Shown: positions 16,387-28,460 of the stretch, in pieces | Layout of the letters: each line of letters opens with the position of its first letter | Position numbering within the stretch: the stretch's first letter is position 1 | Sequence record: PZ452584.1 | Strand: one strand, 5' to 3' | DNA length: 64,000 nucleotides | Source of the DNA: a phage | Notes under the pieces: generated by a model | The model's database searches: none | The model's input: only the letters and a program-made list of their open reading frames with translations | Told to the model about the DNA's origin: nothing | Made by a program: the position numbers and the translations under genes

Positions 16387-17215
16387 TTATATATTTCCAA
16401 TTATAGCCTTCAACACTTTTACGTTCGCCATTTAAACATTTTAAAATATTTCCTTTGCTAGAAATATTAAAATATTTTGCTGCGTCTGGTATATAATTAA
16501 ATGTTTTTAAAAGAACACCATCTTTATATGCGCCAAATAAATTAAGAGTATATTTTTCTCGAAGACGCTGATGTTTCCTTTTCATAACCTCAGGATTTGC
16601 ATACGCCAACTTCAATGAATTTCTGTGTTTTTCTTTTACTTCAGGTTTTTGCATTGCTAACTTAGTTAGCCTGGAAATTTTATTTCTAACTTCGTCAGTT
16701 TTCATTGCATTTGACAAATTTAATAAAGTTTTATTTCTAACTTCAGGTTTTTGCATTGCTAACTTAGTTAGTTCTCTATGTCTTTTTCTAAAATCGTCAT
16801 CCTTCCATATATTTTTCGATAATTTTGACATAGAGCGGTGAAATAATTCCTTTTCACTGGAATACAATTTAAAAATTTCATCCAATTCATCCGCATTAAA
16901 TCTATCGGTATTCGAGTTTATCATTCTATGAAAGGCATAACACATTTTACTATTGCTTGTTTTAGCTAAATAGTAATGAGCTAACGCATGGTCATAATAT
17001 GACAAATTAACAATATTCCATTTATCTGTTTTATATTCAGGAAATATAGATTTGGGAAGCACGTGATGTGCTTCCGTTTTTCCTTTTATTTTAGGATTAT
17101 TATAATTTTTTGTTATCAAATCAACATATGACAATAGTAAATCATTATTTTCTTCAAATATTAAAGCTAATTTATCATTCACAAAATCGCAAGGATAAAA
17201 TCTATCATAATTCAT
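16376..17215 (-). mobile_element. mobC: HNH homing endonuclease (MobC-like) inserted between nrdD and nrdG
   Basis: 279 aa with KTEAHHVLPKSIFPEY...NLSYYDHALAH HNH core; first 14 codons MNYDRFYPCDFVND copy the nrdG N-terminus; start overlaps nrdD stop (ATGA), stop overlaps nrdG start. Confidence 0.8.
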
Positions 17216-19029
17216 TGGTGTTTAACCCTATGCATGATTTCTTTATTTTTACCGAGATTAAATCCGCGTTCGTTCGGGTTTCCAAGATATCCGCATGTTC
17301 TTCTTATTGTATTCATCTTTTTAGGATCAGTTTCTCCACAAATAGAACAAACAAATCCGTTTTCAGTAGGAGTCATTTCATGGGTACTTCCACATGTAAA
17401 ACATTTATCTACTGGCATATTAACACCAAAATAATCTAAATGTTGTGCAGCATAATCCCATACGGCCTCAAGGCCTTTTAGGTTATTTTTCATATCAGGA
17501 AGTTCAACATAAGAAATGTGACCACCTGTCGCAATGAAATGATATGGTGCTTCACGAGAAATTTTTTCAAACGGAGTAATATTTTCTTCTACTGAAACGT
17601 GGAAACTGTTAGTGTACCATCCTTTATCAGTAACATCCTTTACACTTCCATATTTTTCGGTATCGAGTTTACAGAAGCGATAACAAAGGTTTTCAGCAGG
17701 AGTAGAATACAAACTAAAAGCAAATCCGGTTCTTTCAGTCCACTGTTTAAGATGGGCATTCATTTTAGTTAAAATTTCTTGTCCAATATCACGACCGGCA
17801 AGAATATTCAATTCGTGAATACCAATGTATCCTAGAGACACTGAACTTCTACCGTTTTTAAATAACTCAATTATGTCGTCATCAGGTTTAAGACGAACCC
17901 CGAATGCACCTTCTTGGTAAAGAATAGGAGCAACAGTAGCTTTAACTCCTTTTAAGGAACTAATTCTACACATCAAGGCTTCAAAACATAAATCCATTCG
18001 TTCATTGAACAATTCGATAAATTTCTGTTCATTGAACTGTGTTCCAATATAAGAATCTAACGCAATACGAGGAAGATTCAGTGTTACAACACCGAGATTA
18101 TTACGTCCATCAAGAATTTCATTGCCAGTCGAATCTTTCCATACGCTCAAGAAACTACGACAACCCATTGGAGAAACAGGAATAGATGAGCCGGTGATAG
18201 CTTTATTGTTCTTAGCTGAAATAATATCAGGATACATTCTTTTGCTTGCGCACTCTAGAGCAAGCTGTTTAATATCATAGTTCGGATCGTCTTTATAAAG
18301 ATTAACACCTTCTTCAACGAACATAACAAGCTTAGGGAAAATAGGAGTTATCCCATCACGACCGAGACCTTTAATACGATTTTTCAGAATTGCTTTCTGA
18401 ATCATTCGTTCAGTCCAGTCAGTTCCTGTACCAAATGTAATTGTTACAAAAGGTGTTTGTCCGTTTGAACTAAAGAGAGTATTTACTTCATATTCATAAG
18501 CTTGGAATGCATCGTATACGTCTTTTTCTGTTTTAGATTGGGCATAATTCAGTGCATCGGCGATTTGCCATTTTTCTGCGTCCTCGATATGTTTTGCATA
18601 GGTGCGTTTAACATAAGGAGAAAGTACTTTATCTACATTCGCAAAAGTCGTTCCGCCGTATTGGTGAGAAGCAACCTGTGCGGTAATTTGTGCCATAATT
18701 GCAGTAGCAACGCCAATTGATTTAGGAGTTTCAATCTGCGCATTACCAAGCTTAAATCCGTTCTCAAGCATTCCTTTTAAATCTACTAAACAGCAATTAG
18801 TAAATGGAAGAGCAGGGGAATAATCAATATCATGAAAATGAATAATTCCGCTTTCATGCGCTTTCATAATAAAAGACGGGACCATATTTTTGGCAATGTG
18901 TTTAGACACAATACCAGCCATAAGGTCCCGTTGAGTTGGAAAAACACGAGAATCTTTGTTAGCATTCTCGTTTAAAAGGTCTTTATTAGTTTTATGAATC
19001 AATCCTTCAATTTCTTTTTCAATTGTCAT
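17212..19029 (-). CDS. nrdD: anaerobic ribonucleotide reductase NrdD (glycyl radical enzyme), uninterrupted
   Basis: 605-aa continuous ORF ending with glycyl-radical motif RRTCGYLG and C-terminal Cys cluster; no intron in this phage. Confidence 0.95.
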   Translation of the reverse strand: MTIEKEIEGLIHKTNKDLLNENANKDSRVFPTQRDLMAGIVSKHIAKNMVPSFIMKAHESGIIHFHDIDYSPALPFTNCCLVDLKGMLENGFKLGNAQIETPKSIGVATAIMAQITAQVASHQYGGTTFANVDKVLSPYVKRTYAKHIEDAEKWQIADALNYAQSKTEKDVYDAFQAYEYEVNTLFSSNGQTPFVTITFGTGTDWTERMIQKAILKNRIKGLGRDGITPIFPKLVMFVEEGVNLYKDDPNYDIKQLALECASKRMYPDIISAKNNKAITGSSIPVSPMGCRSFLSVWKDSTGNEILDGRNNLGVVTLNLPRIALDSYIGTQFNEQKFIELFNERMDLCFEALMCRISSLKGVKATVAPILYQEGAFGVRLKPDDDIIELFKNGRSSVSLGYIGIHELNILAGRDIGQEILTKMNAHLKQWTERTGFAFSLYSTPAENLCYRFCKLDTEKYGSVKDVTDKGWYTNSFHVSVEENITPFEKISREAPYHFIATGGHISYVELPDMKNNLKGLEAVWDYAAQHLDYFGVNMPVDKCFTCGSTHEMTPTENGFVCSICGETDPKKMNTIRRTCGYLGNPNERGFNLGKNKEIMHRVKHQ

Positions 19030-20798: not shown

Positions 20799-21056
20799 TT
20801 ATTCCTTAATTCCTAGTACTTGTTTAAAAGTCTCGTCGTAATCAAGACTTTGGCCCGTTTGTTCTTTATGTTTGTATATAATATCACTTACTTCTGATAG
20901 CATATTTTTATATGAACGAGTTAAAGCAGATTTAAGCACGCTGTATCTATCAGGAAATTTACCGTGTTCATTATAATAAGCTATTGCTAATTCACGGACT
21001 GCCTTTTCGGCAGTCTCCATATATTCTTTACGCTTTGTCATTTTCTTCTCGGTCAA
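20799..21056 (-). CDS. hypothetical protein
   Basis: 85-aa ORF. Confidence 0.4.
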
Positions 21057-21345
21057 ATCGGTGTTTACAATGGCGACATTTATAACGAAGATTATTAGTC
21101 TGCCAATGGACTAATTGCACCTGTTCAGTTCCACATTCAGGGCAATTAGGAACGTTTTTAGAAGCTCTTTCACGTCGCTCAACCATAACCATAATAGCGT
21201 CCCAGGCTGGCGGTTTAAAATCTAAATCGTCACAACCATGAATCTTTCCACGCATTTCCAAATCGTCTTCTTCACCAGCCATAATAATTTTAATTAGACT
21301 AGAATTACTTGAAGCTGCAATATCTTCTAATAAACGCTTTTTCAT
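21028..21345 (-). CDS. hypothetical zinc-ribbon protein
   Basis: 105 aa with CPECG...CRHC cysteine pairs. Confidence 0.4.
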
Positions 21346-22268
21346 TTCAATACCTCAATAGCATTACGTAAACCATTTGCTTTGGCGGTTAAAGTCTTAA
21401 GAACTTTAGTATGCTCTTCAATCTGTTTTTCAACTTCAATCAAACGGGCACTGAGATATTCGCGTTCTTCTTTCATATTATCATTCCCATGATTGGGCTT
21501 TGGCGTAGGTTTAAATTTATTAGGGTCCTTTAACTTAATAACAACTTTAGTTTCAAACAGTGAAAGACCATAATTCGTATTATCATCAAAGGATTCAACT
21601 ACGTCCATTTTAGACAATAACGTATGAAGATTATAAGTCAAAGAACGAATCGTTTTATTATGTTTATTAGCTTCACATGGTTTCATATATGGAAGATTTT
21701 TATATATTTCATGCGGAGCACAAACAATAATTGACAATTCAAATGGTCCATTCTGTGATGATGGAATGAATTTAGCCGTAACCCAATCTTTTACATTTAC
21801 ATTAATAGTACGATCATCGCCATGACAAAACAGTCTACGAGAATGCTTAAAAAGCATATTCACATTATTATTAAATTCGTGTGAAAACTCACTGGCAAAT
21901 TTTTCTTTACTATTTTTAGAAAACCATTCTTCTAAATAAGTTCTTTTCACGTCATTAATAATATTAAATGTAACAACATTATCATTTGATACATTAGTCT
22001 CAATGTAGCTTGGATACATAAATTTTTTAACATTATTAACAGCTATCACAGAAGATAGTAATCGGGAACGTTTGAACCACTCGAGCAAAGAACCAAGAGA
22101 ATGTGAATACGCATTTTGTGTATCTTTACAAATATGGTTTTCCCATCCAATATAGTCTAAAAAATCACGAAGAATATTATTGATTACTGCTCTGTGTCCT
22201 ATCTGATAATTACGATGTTTAGTAATAAGACTGTCAAAATAATCAATATAATGTTTACGAGTTTTCAT
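21342..22268 (-). CDS. hypothetical protein, member A of coiled-coil-tailed paralog set
   Basis: 308 aa; globular N-part, Pro/Lys linker (KPTPKPN), C-terminal ~40-aa heptad helix. Confidence 0.5.
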   Translation of the reverse strand: MKTRKHYIDYFDSLITKHRNYQIGHRAVINNILRDFLDYIGWENHICKDTQNAYSHSLGSLLEWFKRSRLLSSVIAVNNVKKFMYPSYIETNVSNDNVVTFNIINDVKRTYLEEWFSKNSKEKFASEFSHEFNNNVNMLFKHSRRLFCHGDDRTINVNVKDWVTAKFIPSSQNGPFELSIIVCAPHEIYKNLPYMKPCEANKHNKTIRSLTYNLHTLLSKMDVVESFDDNTNYGLSLFETKVVIKLKDPNKFKPTPKPNHGNDNMKEEREYLSARLIEVEKQIEEHTKVLKTLTAKANGLRNAIEVLK

Positions 22269-22320
22269 GTTCTTCTCACTTGGTTAATGATTTATACTCC
22301 GAGCCATCCTTGGCTTTAAA

Positions 22321-23322
22321 TTACTTAATTAACTGTAAAGCTTGTTCCAAACTATCAAGACGATTAACAGATTCTTCCCAAATCCTTTTAGCCTGCTCAT
22401 ATTCTTTCTGCGCTTTATTAGAAATTTCTAGAGCTTCTTTATAAGCTTTTTCTAATGCAATAACTTCTGGACGAATTTCTACCGGTTCAGGTGAATCATC
22501 AAGATTATCCATTAGTTCCTCAAGGGTAGTTTCTTCTTTAGGAGTATTCACAATTTCATCACATTTTTGTTGGTAAATTTCTTTATCAGTAGGTGAGTAC
22601 GCGCACTTTACTTCACGAAGACTAATTACAATTTTATATCCTTCCCAGCCGCATATATTCTTAAAAGGATATGTATGAATATTTTCTACTGTTTCCATAC
22701 AAAGTAATGCGGTCTCTAATTGACGAGTTATAGTGCTAGCAATTGAGAAAAATTTATTAATGTTCTTTTGGTTAGTTTCTGGTGTAAAAAATCCATAATT
22801 CACAAAAATAGATACTTTATTTTTATCAAGTTCATATTCTTTTATGATAATCATATCAGAAGCCAAAGGATGAATTTGACGATAATCGCCATAACATAAT
22901 TTAGAAGCTGATTTTAGAATCTGTCCTTTGAAAAGTCTGAAATTACTAATCCAACGACGAGTAAAAATATTCTCAGGGTCTTCTTTATTATTAAGATGAT
23001 AAGAATTAACATCACCGAACCAATTATATCCTACTACATCTTTGGTTCGTTTAATTTCTTTCCCAAAATTACCAAGAATATCCCGATTAACCAAATATGA
23101 AAGAAGACGAGACTCTTTAAAGGTTTTCTTGATAACATCTTTATCTACACGGCTAGAAATTTTACGAATTTCATGAATAAATTTAGTAGAAGAAACAATA
23201 CTTGCATCAACACTATTGAGCCATTGATTGATAATAGAAAGAACGATATTTTGACCAAACATCGGTATAGCTTTATCATCAATAACGCTATTGAATGATT
23301 TGATATATTCGTTACGAGTCAT
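22321..23322 (-). CDS. hypothetical protein, member B of coiled-coil-tailed paralog set
   Basis: 333 aa from ATG 23320-23322 (SD GAGGAG); Pro-rich linker then C-terminal amphipathic helix; shares RLLS motif patch with member A. Confidence 0.5.
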   Translation of the reverse strand: MTRNEYIKSFNSVIDDKAIPMFGQNIVLSIINQWLNSVDASIVSSTKFIHEIRKISSRVDKDVIKKTFKESRLLSYLVNRDILGNFGKEIKRTKDVVGYNWFGDVNSYHLNNKEDPENIFTRRWISNFRLFKGQILKSASKLCYGDYRQIHPLASDMIIIKEYELDKNKVSIFVNYGFFTPETNQKNINKFFSIASTITRQLETALLCMETVENIHTYPFKNICGWEGYKIVISLREVKCAYSPTDKEIYQQKCDEIVNTPKEETTLEELMDNLDDSPEPVEIRPEVIALEKAYKEALEISNKAQKEYEQAKRIWEESVNRLDSLEQALQLIK

Positions 23323-23350
23323 ATTAATCTCCTCAGTAGAAAGTAAGAAC

Positions 23351-23380
23351 ATTATACCACATCCTTGTGGCAAAGTAAAC
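23351..23380 (-). promoter_or_regulatory. sigma70-type early promoter
   Basis: minus-sense GTTTAC-N18-TATAAT upstream of 22321-23322. Confidence 0.5.
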
Positions 23381-24399
23381 TAGTTCAGTGCATTTAGTGC
23401 ATTGTTCAGTTTAGAACGTTGCTTTGTCAGATTTTGAACCCTTGACTGAGCTTGTTCTAACACCTTTTCAGCTTCTAGCACTTCATTGGTCGCTTTAACG
23501 AGTTCATCATCTACTGCCTTAAGAGACTTCTCAATCGCGTCAGCGTGCCATTTTTCTACAGGTTTAAAATTTGAATTTTCAGTAGGAAGAAAACTCACTT
23601 TATTAAGTTTACATGCATCTATATTGCTTGAGCTATACATCCAAAATTTAGGATCGTTTGATAAGTAATTGGATAAATTTAAGTTATCTTGCACTTCCTG
23701 CTTTTTCTCTTGCGGGACTTCGTCCTTTCTCAAAAAATCGTATTTAAATGAAACGATCATATCAAGTTCATATGATGTTGTATCTAACTTAAATCGTTCA
23801 AAACGAGGTAAAATCTTAGATTGAACAGCAGCAACAACATCCATATACTTAAATGCTTCTGTCAATTGTGATTTAAGGCATTCACAAATTGAAAGAGAAT
23901 TTTTTGTATTAGGTTTAAAGCTAATTCGTGCAGTTCTATTATTTTCTTTTAACGGTCTTACTTCCATCTGAAGAGTATAACCATCAAATTTCAGGTTCTT
24001 TAAGTTAATATCAGAGCCTTTTAATCGACTAGCAGTAGACAAAATTTGCTTTAATTGTCTACGGAACAGAGCAATAAATCTCCATTCAATACGATAATGA
24101 TTTGGATTGAAAAATCCAGATGATAAATCGACCTTACTTTGACCAACGCCTTGAACAAATAGAGGATTTTTATAATCAATAGTTTTACAGAAATCGGTGA
24201 GCTGCTCACGAGCAGTTATTTGTGTAATATACCCCGCTTTACTAAAATGACGTAACCATTCACTGTTGTTCATATATTTAAAGTGAATATCACGATTAAC
24301 TTTATCAGGGTCTAAATTATTTTGGCACAAAAATGTCATAACATCACGAGTATAGCTGGCATTACGAACCATATCTTCAATTTGAGAACGAGTTTTCAT
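23380..24399 (-). CDS. hypothetical protein, member C of coiled-coil-tailed paralog set
   Basis: 339 aa; starts MKTR like member A; linker then C-terminal helix LEAEKVLEQAQSRVQNLTKQRSKLNNALNALN. Confidence 0.5.
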   Translation of the reverse strand: MKTRSQIEDMVRNASYTRDVMTFLCQNNLDPDKVNRDIHFKYMNNSEWLRHFSKAGYITQITAREQLTDFCKTIDYKNPLFVQGVGQSKVDLSSGFFNPNHYRIEWRFIALFRRQLKQILSTASRLKGSDINLKNLKFDGYTLQMEVRPLKENNRTARISFKPNTKNSLSICECLKSQLTEAFKYMDVVAAVQSKILPRFERFKLDTTSYELDMIVSFKYDFLRKDEVPQEKKQEVQDNLNLSNYLSNDPKFWMYSSSNIDACKLNKVSFLPTENSNFKPVEKWHADAIEKSLKAVDDELVKATNEVLEAEKVLEQAQSRVQNLTKQRSKLNNALNALN

Positions 24400-24407
24400 G
24401 GTGTTCC

Positions 24408-25322
24408 TTAAGATTTAAGTAAATCAACAATTTTAATTAACTTTTCACGCTCAGATTTAGCTTTACTACTCAATCCAGATAGTCTGAAAATTTCATCATC
24501 ATATTGTTGAATAGAAATATTCAGCTCTTCAATTTGCTTATTAAAATAATCAATTTGTTCAGAATGTTTTTCGTTACTACGAACTGGTACAGGTTTTGTA
24601 GGCAATTTAGTTGAACTGAATTCATCCGGGTGATAAATTAAAATACAACTTGAACCAATAGGGCATTTTGCACCAGATGAATATTCTAATGTTCCGGCTT
24701 CTTTTAAAACTTCAAAAGCTAAACAGAGATGATGCCCCATATTAACATAATCTGTAGAGTGAGCTCTGACGTAATAATCATCTCCACGAGTGCTAAATTT
24801 AAAGCATTTAAGGTCTTCTGTATTATTAGTTTTAAAAATCATTTGTTTATCTAGACCTTTAGCCAATCGAGCACCTAATGCTAATAATCGTCGTTGATTT
24901 TCCCACAAATCCGCAATCATTTGATCGAATGATAATTTTGGCATTAGTCGACCATAAAGGTCATATCCTTTATTATAATTACGAAGGATTTCACTCGCGT
25001 TAATACGAGACAATGCTCCAATTTTATTAAGGGCTTTCATAATGCGATTAGATAAACTCATTCCAGATCCGTTTGTTCGCTGTAAATGTTTTTCTAATCC
25101 AAATCCAATATCAACTTTAAACTTATCTAAAATTTCGGCGTGAACATCTCTGTCAATAACATTCAAATCCAAAGTTGTGTTAAATCTATGAAAAAATTTA
25201 TCTGGCTCTCCACGACGAAATACAGTCCATTCATTCATCATTTTTTTATTAACTAAAGATTTAATTACTGCATTGACATTATTAATTACTACTGACATAT
25301 TTTCCTCACTCAATTTTACCAA
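24408..25322 (-). CDS. hypothetical protein, member D of coiled-coil-tailed paralog set
   Basis: 304 aa; PTKPVPV linker then C-terminal helix. Confidence 0.5.
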   Translation of the reverse strand: MVKLSEENMSVVINNVNAVIKSLVNKKMMNEWTVFRRGEPDKFFHRFNTTLDLNVIDRDVHAEILDKFKVDIGFGLEKHLQRTNGSGMSLSNRIMKALNKIGALSRINASEILRNYNKGYDLYGRLMPKLSFDQMIADLWENQRRLLALGARLAKGLDKQMIFKTNNTEDLKCFKFSTRGDDYYVRAHSTDYVNMGHHLCLAFEVLKEAGTLEYSSGAKCPIGSSCILIYHPDEFSSTKLPTKPVPVRSNEKHSEQIDYFNKQIEELNISIQQYDDEIFRLSGLSSKAKSEREKLIKIVDLLKS

Positions 25323-25707
25323 TTACGCGGAATAAGATTGAACAGACTATATAAGTACCACATATAGATTGAACTAATGCCATTCCAAAGAACCAAACAA
25401 TATTATCAAACCATGTCTGTTTTACGTCGAAAGGACGTAAACTTACAGTAATATTATCACCTTTTTCTATTGAAGAATACATCTCTGGGGAAATATATTC
25501 ACTAAATCTATAACCGTCTTTGAGTTCATATACAGCAATAAACGATAAACTAGACCCCTTTCCTTGAGTTCCTGTAAGGGTATTAACTACAGTAACATCA
25601 TAATCTTTATAATGCATATAATCATTAATTGCGTAATAACCATATGCAATTACTATACATAAACAACATATCAATAAATTCAATCTTTTAATTATCAACT
25701 GTTTCAT
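25306..25707 (-). CDS. membrane protein (two TM helices)
   Basis: 133 aa, hydrophobic N- and C-terminal segments. Confidence 0.45.
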   Translation of the reverse strand: MKQLIIKRLNLLICCLCIVIAYGYYAINDYMHYKDYDVTVVNTLTGTQGKGSSLSFIAVYELKDGYRFSEYISPEMYSSIEKGDNITVSLRPFDVKQTWFDNIVWFFGMALVQSICGTYIVCSILFRVIGKIE

Positions 25708-25762: not shown

Positions 25763-26290
25763 TTATGCGAGTACCGTCTTTAACCGTTCTTCAAACTTCC
25801 GAAGAGTGTTCTGGCGTTCAGCTCTTTGCTTTTTGTAAGTTTCAATACGCTCTGAAATGAGAGTGTATCGTTCATTTACTGATTCTTTCATAAAATCAGG
25901 AATTTCACGAGAAGCTTTAATCTCGTCAAATTTATCAATAACAGCTTGCTCTTCAGCAATTAAGTTATCATACATCAAAATATCTTTCTTGATGAACTCA
26001 ATATCTTCTTGAGTTACACGAGATAATTTAGATGCTTTATCCTTTTTGTACTGTTCGTTAGTATCACGAGACCAGTGTAATGTACGATTTTTATTCGTAT
26101 TTTTGTAAATTTCTACAATACCAATCTCATCGATAATAACGATCCAATTCCAACGGGATTTATAAATTTGTCCTCCATCAACCGTGATTTCACCTCCGAT
26201 TGAGATGTCATTAAAGAACTTGCTTTGTGCTTCAGATTTAAATTTACCATCGTTGTAATTTACCAGGTTGAAAATATCTTTAGCATTCAT
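25763..26290 (-). CDS. hypothetical protein with C-terminal coiled coil
   Basis: start at ATG 26288-26290 (MNAKDIF, SD GGAGG); upstream extension in ORF track is read-through of promoter block. Confidence 0.45.
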   Translation of the reverse strand: MNAKDIFNLVNYNDGKFKSEAQSKFFNDISIGGEITVDGGQIYKSRWNWIVIIDEIGIVEIYKNTNKNRTLHWSRDTNEQYKKDKASKLSRVTQEDIEFIKKDILMYDNLIAEEQAVIDKFDEIKASREIPDFMKESVNERYTLISERIETYKKQRAERQNTLRKFEERLKTVLA

Positions 26291-26318
26291 TTTCTGTTCC
26301 TCCGTAGTTGATAGTTGT

Positions 26319-26348
26319 ATAGTACCACAGAGGAACGGTCTTGTAAAC
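26319..26348 (-). promoter_or_regulatory. sigma70-type early promoter with conserved leader block
   Basis: GTTTAC-N18-TACTAT followed by ACAACTATCAAC; same block recurs at 27759, 32395, 43834. Confidence 0.5.
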
Positions 26349-26350
26349 AA

Positions 26351-26755: not shown

Positions 26756-27724
26756 TTATTTCAGAAGAGTAACCTCAGCGATTTCTTCCCAGCCGTTTTT
26801 GTCGGTCATAATAAAGTCAGCAAGATAAAGAGCAGTACGCAGTGAAACATTGCGTAAACGATTAACATTGACTTTCATCCATGATAATGCTTTATAAGTT
26901 TCTTCATCAGAAAGACCACGCTTTTGCATCATGTCGGTTGAAAGAATAACATCTTCAACCCTGACCATAATTTCTTCATTAGTGTGAACACCCAAATCCA
27001 AATAAACTGAGCGGGACACTAATGCTTGTAAATGTGGAGCAAGTTTAGTACCACGGTCTAATTCGCGGTCAATGTCAACGTTTGTGATAAAAACAATCGT
27101 TCCTTTAAATTCAAACTCACGCTCAATGCCTTTTTCTTCTAAGTAAGAAGATGCAGTGCTCCAGCAGACTTTACGGGTCTCTCCAGTGTCCAGAGCGGCT
27201 TTTAGAAGATTAAGAATATCCATATCAGAGAAAACATCCACATCATCAATCAAAAGGACAGAATTCTCTTCACGATTATTCCAAAGCTGCTCATAAAGAC
27301 CGATACCGGAGATTTTACCGTTAATGCTTTTATATTCAATGTATCCATTATCATTTGCTTTATTTAAAGCTTTATCTAAAGAATACGTTTTACCAATACC
27401 CGCCGCACCAGAGATAATTAATGAACGAATGTTTCCGTTAATAATACCATTCGTCATCATTCCCATAACATTAAATCTTTTATTAATGCGGGTTTTCATA
27501 TCTTCATATGATTCTTTAACTTCTTCAACTTTTACACCATCATATGAAATGTCTGATTTGTAAACCCAAACACCGCGACGTTTACCGTCAATTTCAACAA
27601 AAACTTTACCATCTCCTTGTGCATCTACCGGAGCATTATCTGGGAACCATTCACCTAAGAGCTCAAAAGTTCCAGAGATTTCTTTACCAAAGTAGATACC
27701 CTTATTGATAGTTACAGTTTTCAT
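26756..27724 (-). CDS. AAA+/P-loop ATPase of unknown function
   Basis: Walker A GAAGIGKT, Walker B LLIDDVD, sensor-like LRNVSLRTALYLAD; start at ATG 27722-27724 (SD GGAG). Confidence 0.55.
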   Translation of the reverse strand: MKTVTINKGIYFGKEISGTFELLGEWFPDNAPVDAQGDGKVFVEIDGKRRGVWVYKSDISYDGVKVEEVKESYEDMKTRINKRFNVMGMMTNGIINGNIRSLIISGAAGIGKTYSLDKALNKANDNGYIEYKSINGKISGIGLYEQLWNNREENSVLLIDDVDVFSDMDILNLLKAALDTGETRKVCWSTASSYLEEKGIEREFEFKGTIVFITNVDIDRELDRGTKLAPHLQALVSRSVYLDLGVHTNEEIMVRVEDVILSTDMMQKRGLSDEETYKALSWMKVNVNRLRNVSLRTALYLADFIMTDKNGWEEIAEVTLLK

Positions 27725-27758
27725 TTTATTCTCCAAATCCGTATCAGTTGATAGTTGT

Positions 27759-27818: not shown

Positions 27819-27838
27819 GGGGGACCTCTAGGGCCCCC
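27819..27838 (-). terminator. GC-rich hairpin
   Basis: GGGGGCCC-uaga-GGUCCCCC with flanking A/U runs. Confidence 0.45.
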
Positions 27839-27847
27839 TTTATGCTT

Positions 27848-28333
27848 TTATTCCATTTCTATTATATGCATGTTCTTTTTGCTATCAAAATATATGTTTT
27901 TAACTGTTAACTCCGAATTAATTGGCAATAAAAACTCTCTTTCATAATCTACCATACAAAGGTTATCATAAAGCTTGTTAAGCTTATCATCGTCAGTTTG
28001 GCCAGATTCTTCAATTGCGATTAAATTTTCTAAAATGTCAATCATAGCAGTCGAATAGTCAAAAACGTTTGCATTTTTTAACACTACTAAAACATTAGTC
28101 ATATAGCGTTCTGCAGCAAACGTTTCAGCTATATGAGACTCACTGCTAAAGGAAGTTATTCTTTTAAATTTGATTCTCCTATTAACTTCAAACTTATAAG
28201 ATAGTACTTCCTCTATTGTAAGTCCTCTAAAAAGCACGTCTTTAATCTCAAGTTTGTCTTTAATGTAATCATTAACACGCTTATGATTAAAATCATTAAT
28301 TTTGTTGCCAAGGCATTTCATTAAAATATGCAT
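27848..28333 (-). CDS. hypothetical protein
   Basis: ORF; start taken at ATG 28331-28333. Confidence 0.4.
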   Translation of the reverse strand: MHILMKCLGNKINDFNHKRVNDYIKDKLEIKDVLFRGLTIEEVLSYKFEVNRRIKFKRITSFSSESHIAETFAAERYMTNVLVVLKNANVFDYSTAMIDILENLIAIEESGQTDDDKLNKLYDNLCMVDYEREFLLPINSELTVKNIYFDSKKNMHIIEME

Positions 28334-28381
28334 TGTGTTTCTCTTCAATTTTTTAAAGAACAATTAATTAACTACAAATAT

Positions 28382-28411: not shown

Positions 28412-28440
28412 AACTTTGTGAAAAATTTTTGAAATAAAAA

Positions 28441-28458
28441 GGGAGCCCGAAGGCTCCC
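28441..28458 (-). terminator. C(UUCG)G tetraloop hairpin after nucleotidyltransferase gene
   Basis: GGGAGCC-UUCG-GGCUCCC. Confidence 0.5.
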
Positions 28459-28460
28459 TA

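Follow-up and report, generated by a model that had tools for sequence, protein, structure and literature searches.

The nrdC.3 to nrdC.6 array

The window analyzed here, a 64,000-nucleotide stretch of phage DNA (sequence record PZ452584.1), carries on its minus strand at 21342-25322 four co-directional open reading frames (ORFs), which are the nrdC.3, nrdC.4, nrdC.5 and nrdC.6 genes of Tequatrovirus (T4-like) phages. Comparison of sequence profiles shows the four genes to be tandem, strongly and anciently diverged paralogs of one superfamily, and one of them, nrdC.5, corresponds to a known counter-defense gene of phage T4. The DNA of the four-gene region is 90-98% identical to that of more than 460 Tequatrovirus genomes in which the genes are annotated nrdC.3-nrdC.6; by megablast, 462 records match over 80% or more of its length at this identity, which identifies the genes as T4 orthologs, and the T4 GT7 locus is collinear with the array of the window. 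The array is flanked by the zinc-ribbon gene nrdC.2 (21028-21345), whose start shares 4 nucleotides (nt) with the nrdC.3 stop, and by the membrane-protein gene nrdC.7 (25306-25707). The genes, the parts assigned to their products (in amino acids, aa) and a candidate promoter are the following:

21342..22268, minus strand: nrdC.3 (member A), 308 aa, from the ORF list; phrog_1435, E = 6.6e-102. Head ~aa 1-250; linker KFKPTPKPNHGN, aa 251-262; tail aa 263-308, last residues LRNAIEVLK.
22321..23322, minus strand: nrdC.4 (member B), 333 aa; phrog_1435, E = 2.8e-168. Acidic linker with PEPVEIRP at aa 278-285; tail aa 286-333, last residues LEQALQLIK.
23380..24399, minus strand: nrdC.5 (member C), 339 aa; phrog_2351; Pfam DUF7235, E = 1.1e-115. 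Head aa 1-226 (nt 23722-24399); predicted disordered linker aa 227-279 (23563-23721); predicted single-helix tail aa 281-338 (23383-23562).
24408..25298, minus strand: nrdC.6 (member D), 296 aa; phrog_2257; Pfam PF26899 on homologues. Head aa 1-226 (24621-25298); linker with KPVPVRS, aa 227-244 (24567-24620).
24411..24566, minus strand: nrdC.6 tail, aa 245-296, helix-kink-helix in the AlphaFold2 model.
23351..23379, minus strand: putative early promoter in the nrdC.5-nrdC.4 spacer, GTTTAC-N14-GTGGTATAAT, compared with the T4 early-promoter consensus.

The four ORFs lie on one strand where a preliminary description of this DNA, made from the sequence alone, had placed them, except that the fourth had been extended to 25322. 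That position is an upstream TTG that is unlikely to be used; the true start of nrdC.6 is almost certainly the ATG at 25298, because a GAGGAAA ribosome-binding site precedes it and all homologues begin with MS. In the sequence the nrdC.4 ATG at 23322 is preceded by a GAGGAG ribosome-binding site, and nrdC.5 starts at the ATG at 24399, 8 nt past the nrdC.6 stop. An MKTR start, noticed earlier for members A and C, is indeed found in nrdC.3 and nrdC.5, and nrdC.4 starts with MTR. The promoter candidate of the spacer agrees with the consensus at 10 of 12 positions, with TG, as a consensus match only in a promoter scan; for phage SA35RD, the annotation of the syntenic array includes the same early-promoter consensus.

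Descent and architecture of the four proteins

Pairwise comparison and family assignment give a divided picture of the array. A blastp comparison of nrdC.3 with nrdC.4 is significant over their full length (E = 2.5e-4); no significant blastp match was found between nrdC.6 and the other three proteins, nor between nrdC.5 and nrdC.4. PHROGs file nrdC.3 and nrdC.4 together in phrog_1435, nrdC.5 in phrog_2351 and nrdC.6 in phrog_2257. Against Pfam DUF7235 (PF23882), which has a gathering threshold of 30 bits, nrdC.5 scores 386.7 bits over its full length (E = 1.1e-115) and nrdC.3 scores 12.2 bits (E = 0.12) in the tail only, and the Pfam scan gives no match of nrdC.4 or nrdC.6 to this family; nrdC.5 alone therefore belongs to DUF7235. 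The lack of blastp significance and the placement of the proteins by PHROGs and Pfam in three separate families would be expected if the four genes were unrelated, their layout being convergent or due to chance and their coiled coils giving spurious similarity; proteins built from a globular domain and a C-terminal helix are indeed common. The profile evidence makes this very improbable.

Profile alignments were run between the families, at first with small family alignments drawn from five other phages. With these shallow profiles hhalign joins nrdC.3 to nrdC.4 at 97% and nrdC.4 to nrdC.5 marginally at 64% (E = 6.6e-5), and nrdC.6 is linked to none of the other three. The nrdC.6 link that they missed was supplied by a bridging family, designated E, that was found through Foldseek matches. 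Models made by AlphaFold2 with family alignments cover two of the four proteins, nrdC.5 and nrdC.6, and in searches of BFVD both match A0A0A0PZG4 of Pectobacterium phage PM2 (E = 1.1e-5 for nrdC.5 and 1.4e-6 for nrdC.6) as well as A0A023W506 of Serratia phage PS2; neither model returned nrdC.3 or nrdC.4 entries from BFVD. TM-scores in the structure comparisons are 0.3-0.47. Family E, represented by PM2_092 (A0A0A0PZG4) of PM2 and QEA10564 of Enterobacter phage IME523, belongs to the same superfamily: in PM2 and the Kanagawavirus phages its gene lies, like the array, immediately upstream of nrdC.2, and its product has the same head-linker-tail layout and tail motif (e.g. KIRAQRAKLLHAMQELRK). 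It is uncharacterized and present in one copy per genome, whereas the window holds four diverged copies.

With family E included, the links by hhalign become strong and collinear. E aligns with nrdC.5 at 95.6% (E = 1.2e-8, 217 columns up to the C-terminus) and with nrdC.6 at 96.0% (E = 4.9e-9); the combined nrdC.3+nrdC.4 profile aligns with nrdC.5+E at 95.9% (E = 6.4e-9, 250 collinear columns) and with nrdC.5+nrdC.6+E at 93% (E = 3.4e-7), and nrdC.6 aligns with nrdC.5+E at 94.3% (E = 1e-7). Controls remain low, at most 1.5% for reversed profiles and at most 0.5% for an unrelated neighbor family, F. With the tails removed, E and nrdC.6 still align at 90% (E = 1.6e-6; NWKMFLALGARCQFG...WKT against NQRRLLALGARLAKG...FKT), E and nrdC.5 only at 51%, and nrdC.3+nrdC.4 and nrdC.5 at ~62%. 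A hidden Markov model (HMM) of family E, built with no sequence of the genus of the window, finds its three best matches among the 218 ORFs of the window in nrdC.6 (5e-8), nrdC.5 (1e-3) and nrdC.3 (0.018), and among these ORFs the family HMMs matched none beyond the array. HMMs of the tail from which one family was left out give a borderline signal for the last 11 residues (E = 0.05-0.3) and detect nothing in nrdC.6, so that the tail alone is no proof of homology, a further point for unrelated origins. Against such origins stand the collinear links of 93-97% between families, the tail-less match of E to nrdC.6 and the low negative controls, the BFVD matches common to both models, conserved columns along the whole length of the proteins, and a single-copy relative at the same nrdC.2-adjoining position in other genera. 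Chance convergence was rejected on the profile links and the full-length conserved columns, and the paralog family of the preliminary description stands.

Two further candidates for membership were rejected. The nrdC.8 gene (25763-26350, minus strand), the product of which ends in a long predicted helix (…ERIETYKKQRAERQNTLRKFEERLKTVLA), matched neither the tail HMM nor any family HMM, and the 256-aa neighbor family F of PM2 and Kanagawavirus reached at most the control value given above.

An alignment of 33 superfamily sequences contains ~40 conserved columns that extend from the N-terminus to the last residue. Two motifs of the core are located as follows:

Core motif 1, h-x-K-x-G-x-L-S-R-x-x-A-x-x-x-L-x-N-F/Y, minus strand: nrdC.6 24975..25031; nrdC.5 24190-24246; nrdC.4 23065-23121; nrdC.3 22020-22076 (superfamily and four-family alignments).
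Core motif 2, F-x3-F-x6-hL-x4-R-x-L-x2-G-x2-R, with the nrdC.6 version LWENQRRLLALGARLAKGLDK, minus strand: nrdC.6 24846..24908; nrdC.5 24004-24066; nrdC.4 22879-22941; nrdC.3 21810-21875 (hhalign of E against member D, four-family and superfamily alignments).

A third motif, QRxKLxxA[IL]xxL[KN], stands at the very end of the proteins and aligns flush right in all members from six genera and in full-length matches among representative proteins; nrdC.3 and nrdC.4 retain only its LxxA[IL]xxLK part. The RSRLLSS/ESRLLSY patch that had been observed in members A and B is real and belongs to the superfamily-wide motif 1. Nearly all of the conserved columns are of a hydrophobic or structural kind; motif 2 contributes one Arg/Lys, and no set of Asp/Glu/His/Cys is conserved.

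Each protein consists of a basic head of ~225-260 residues, alpha/beta in the models and bearing the two core motifs, a variable and predicted disordered linker and a conserved C-terminal helix of 45-60 residues. In the nrdC.5 model the core comprises helix 104-126, strands 143-147 and 156-161, helix 168-185 and strands 189-199 and 209-218, followed by disorder at 227-279 and one helix at 281-338 with a predicted local distance difference test score (pLDDT) of ~90. The nrdC.6 model (pLDDT 77, predicted TM-score (pTM) 0.65) has a core of helix 124-147, strands 166-171 and 174-179, helix 187-200 and strands 205-207 and 219-222, a disordered linker at 227-242 and helices at 246-272 and 278-295. 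The two models thus have a common order of elements: helix, two strands, helix, two strands, disordered linker and long helix. The tails of nrdC.3 and nrdC.4 are collinear with that of nrdC.5 in profile alignments, and the head-linker-tail layout first perceived in the sequence is correct. The C-terminal helix was also rightly foreseen, with a length of ~40 residues that has to be revised to 50-58 on account of the helix limits in the nrdC.5 and nrdC.6 models. Heptad periodicity, as of a putative coiled coil, is significant in the last 42 residues of nrdC.3 (shuffle p = 0.001), nrdC.5 (0.003) and nrdC.6 (0.034), leaving nrdC.4 as the exception; it describes the tails better than an amphipathic moment at 100 degrees, which is not significant for them. 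A Pro/Lys-rich linker had been described, and each linker has only three Pro, one of which, within K/E-P-V/I-E, is the only position that is invariant in the four-family alignment. The heads are basic in every member, with an isoelectric point (pI) of 9.0-9.6 and a net charge of +6 to +12; the tails range from neutral to slightly acidic.

Distribution and turnover of the array

A profile of all four families, searched at E <= 1e-3 against 1.84 billion representative proteins, recovers only 42 clusters, of which ~25 are full-length, with 280-350 aa and the tail motif at the end. Three clusters examined by tblastn derive from T4-like phages of Klebsiella/Raoultella, T4-like phages of Serratia/Erwinia/Kosakonia, and Escherichia phage EcS1; they occupy the syntenic position with one copy per genome, the match falling at ~45 kb in most of the listed records. 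On this sequence evidence the superfamily is shown to be small and restricted to T4-like phages. Copy number differs by genus:

Mosugukvirus, Kanagawavirus: 1 copy, family E
Dhakavirus, Gaprivervirus: 3 copies, nrdC.4, nrdC.5 and nrdC.6 types
Mosigvirus: 3 copies, nrdC.3-like, nrdC.5 and nrdC.6 types
Tequatrovirus: 4 copies, nrdC.3, nrdC.4, nrdC.5 and nrdC.6

The gene is single-copy in T4-like phages of Klebsiella, Serratia, Enterobacter and Pectobacterium, and 3-4 copies occur only in the E. coli/Shigella genera. The ancestral state is one copy adjoining nrdC.2, with expansion to 3-4 in the latter genera. The nrdC.2 product, a protein of 105 aa with two CxxC pairs, is encoded directly downstream of the proximal family member in every genus examined, the adjoining paralog being nrdC.3, nrdC.4 or family E according to genus; nrdC.2 may be a functional partner of the family.

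The hypervariable setting that the preliminary description gave to this island is supported by naturally occurring deletions and chimeras, by a duplication and by the two allele classes of nrdC.3. In phage Manna the nrdC.6 head (aa 1-287) is fused to the nrdC.4 tail (aa 251-333) and nrdC.5 is lost. The Manna chimera (L012:4215-5252, a Salmonella phage) is in frame and its junction falls on a D-E-I common to both parents, which suggests recombination at microhomology. In the metagenomic protein P0056 residues 145-271 of nrdC.5 are joined in frame to a C-terminal half of nrdC.3-like sequence. An internal duplication is present in nrdC.6 of phage Sf25, phage Pinarejo has lost nrdC.6 to an internal deletion, and in phage ACG-C40 nrdC.6 is the only intact member of the array. 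The nrdC.3 alleles of Tequatrovirus fall into one class of ~140 records at least 90% identical to the window and another of ~359 records at 60-63%, the latter close to the Mosigvirus type, and the two classes occur in genomes that are otherwise >90% identical. Within Tequatrovirus, variation is greatest in the linkers and smallest in the tails and cores. Allele classes, viable chimeras, duplication and deletions together form an arms-race signature, in support of a counter-immunity function.

Anti-CRISPR loci and the dmd-tifA-adfA 'anti-TA island' of T4 are, like the array, accessory early-gene clusters in a variable region that are gained or lost between close relatives with an effect on host range. 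These clusters encode mostly unrelated small proteins, whereas the array encodes ~300-aa paralogs with a common conserved tail module.

Several observations concern the neighborhood of the array. In some Tequatrovirus phages a 486-nt gene, ModB (RNA polymerase ADP-ribosylase) according to the ACG-C40 annotation, lies between nrdC.11 and nrdC.10 (L014:385-870 in ACG-C40, L012:1173-1658 in Manna), and at the corresponding position phage RZ carries a gene on the opposite strand; these insertions are further cassette turnover in the same island. The nrdC.10 gene (26756-27736, minus strand, 326 aa) gives sub-threshold matches to P-loop AAA/STAND-type NTPases (nSTAND3, AAA_16, AAA_14; E ~1e-4) and stays next to the array in several genera. 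Upstream of nrdC.10 a gene at 27848-28363 is flanked by two strong GC-rich hairpins with T runs, at 27820-27838 (minus strand) and 28440-28459 (both strands), that resemble intrinsic terminators. The nrdD gene (17212-19029, minus strand), encoding a 605-aa anaerobic ribonucleotide reductase, is uninterrupted in the window; in the T4 GT7 annotation nrdD is composed of two pieces that are joined, with the I-TevII intron endonuclease.

Anti-Dsr1 activity and proposed mechanism

Evolved T4 clones lacking this region no longer plated on E. coli ECOR17 (Srikant et al. 2022, eLife 11:e79549; PMC9391042). In the same work, deletion of dsr1 from ECOR17 restored plating of the T4 mutant, cloned dsr1 protected MG1655 from the T4 deletion mutant, and expression of T4 nrdC.5 alone restored infectivity on MG1655 carrying the ECOR17 Dsr1; nrdC.5 is described there as an early gene (PMC9391042). 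Since the protein encoded at 23380-24399 of the window is the syntenic ortholog of T4 GT7 NrdC.5 (DUF7235, PF23882; phrog_2351), to which it is 94% identical, one of the four genes is a known counter-defense gene. The earlier guess of a host-interaction or anti-defense role thus holds for nrdC.5 and is an extrapolation for nrdC.3, nrdC.4 and nrdC.6. The latter three share the architecture and the conserved motifs of T4 NrdC.5, and because they belong to the same family they are good candidates for immune evasion; they are also <20% identical to it and fall outside DUF7235, and their targets need not be Dsr1.

No mechanism can be read from fold or family matches. Profile searches of the family against the PDB gave coiled-coil noise only, none of the four proteins matched a PADLOC model of defense proteins at E <= 0.1, and an NCBIfam scan gave sub-threshold noise only. 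In the literature searched, no paper on the mechanism of nrdC.5, on an anti-Dsr1 protein or on DUF7235 was found. DNA mimicry of the Ocr/ArdA anti-restriction type, which would require an acidic surface, is ruled out because the heads are basic and net positive. A thioredoxin or glutaredoxin identity has no support, since scanning the four proteins against Pfam and NCBIfam gave no such family. Many GenBank records label nrdC.3-nrdC.11 'thioredoxin', a widely propagated mis-annotation that seems to have been carried over from the locus name nrdC.x.

The explanation that we favor, as probable though with some reserve, is that the array encodes diverged paralogs of which nrdC.5 is directed against Dsr1 and the others against other sensors, all of them non-enzymatic, oligomerizing binders. 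On this explanation nrdC.5 counteracts Dsr1, a host immune protein that depletes NAD+, as published for T4, and the most likely targets of nrdC.3, nrdC.4 and nrdC.6 would be different immune sensors of the host or further variants of the Dsr1/Avs7 type. The variable head would bind and block the host sensor, and the conserved tail would oligomerize the protein as a coiled coil, giving higher avidity. For nrdC.5 the target may be the TPR sensor domain of Dsr1, plausibly in the way that DSR anti-defense 1 (DSAD1) of phage SPbeta, a functional analogy for nrdC.5, blocks DSR2: the reports on DSAD1 (PMC10973363, PMC10981675, PMC11087589) describe a small non-enzymatic phage protein that binds the sensor region of DSR2 and neutralizes this SIR2-type NADase. 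The four proteins would be non-enzymatic because they have no conserved Asp/Glu/His/Cys set, the conserved positions appearing structural rather than catalytic. The viable natural chimera of nrdC.6 head and nrdC.4 tail fits separable modules.

According to a 2026 preprint (PMC12803255), the TPR sensor common to Avs7 and Dsr1 responds to a phage major capsid protein as its trigger. Given this trigger, the heads might instead bind and hide a phage component, either unassembled major capsid protein or another sensed protein, rather than the host sensor, and a blocked trigger would yield the same rescue phenotype as nrdC.5 expression. We regard such masking as quite unlikely: nrdC.5 is an early gene and an early-promoter consensus lies within the array, whereas production of capsid protein is late; a shield that protects a single conserved protein is not expected to diversify into 3-4 paralogs with 61%-identical allele classes; and the capsid-protein trigger was shown with a Drexlerviridae phage, not with T4 (PMC12803255). 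The charge of the proteins bears on another alternative, that they are nucleic-acid-binding or regulatory early proteins whose heads bind DNA or RNA and whose coiled-coil tails dimerize, as is usual in many DNA-binding proteins, with an indirect anti-Dsr1 effect, e.g. because phage genes are expressed at other times or nucleic acid is protected. The basic heads beside neutral or acidic tails speak for it, as does the position of the genes among early host-takeover genes. It is nonetheless judged unlikely, since the sole conserved basic position is the one Arg/Lys of motif 2 and plasmid-expressed nrdC.5 alone suffices for rescue on Dsr1 cells.

Several points weigh against binding and blocking of host sensors by oligomeric proteins. 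The published anti-defense activity is that of T4 nrdC.5 only and is at the level of phenotype. The structural evidence is confined to the nrdC.5 and nrdC.6 models, the former of moderate quality (pLDDT 68, pTM 0.50), and the Foldseek match of the nrdC.6 model to a member of the nrdC.5 family is weak (E = 0.26). Oligomerization of the tails would be suggested by their heptads and by the long helix that a monomer model leaves exposed to solvent, and in a shuffle test the heptad periodicity of the nrdC.4 tail is not significant in a single register. Basic heads would fit nucleic-acid binding as well. Finally, nrdC.6 is highly conserved in Tequatrovirus (95-99% in 459 records), unlike the product of a fast arms race.

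Beyond the favored explanation, a broader and more doubtful proposal is that the array is a modular, expandable counter-immunity platform of T4-like phages, in which a constant coiled-coil docking tail carries interchangeable heads against different host sensors. The tails would dock the paralogs together, possibly as hetero-oligomers, or onto one common partner; nrdC.5 would meet Dsr1, and the remaining heads would meet other sensors, perhaps TPR sensors such as those of the Avs7-like kind. New specificities would arise by duplication and by recombination of heads and tails, as in the Manna chimera.

What was already known is that the genes are annotated as hypothetical and that nrdC.5 has a published phenotype. 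New within the literature searched are the union of nrdC.3-nrdC.6 and their single-copy relatives in one superfamily, the map of its domains and motifs, its copy-number history and its natural chimeras. T4 is the best-studied phage, and about half of its genes are without known function; here four 'hypothetical' T4 genes, so far filed as three unrelated DUF/PHROG families, are united with a proven counter-defense gene among them. This makes nrdC.3, nrdC.4 and nrdC.6, together with the single-copy relatives in Klebsiella, Serratia, Enterobacter and Pectobacterium phages, candidate immune-evasion factors, and the map of head, linker, tail and motifs makes the anti-Dsr1 mechanism directly testable. 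Copy number and allele type of the array may help to explain differences in host range among therapeutic T4-like phages.

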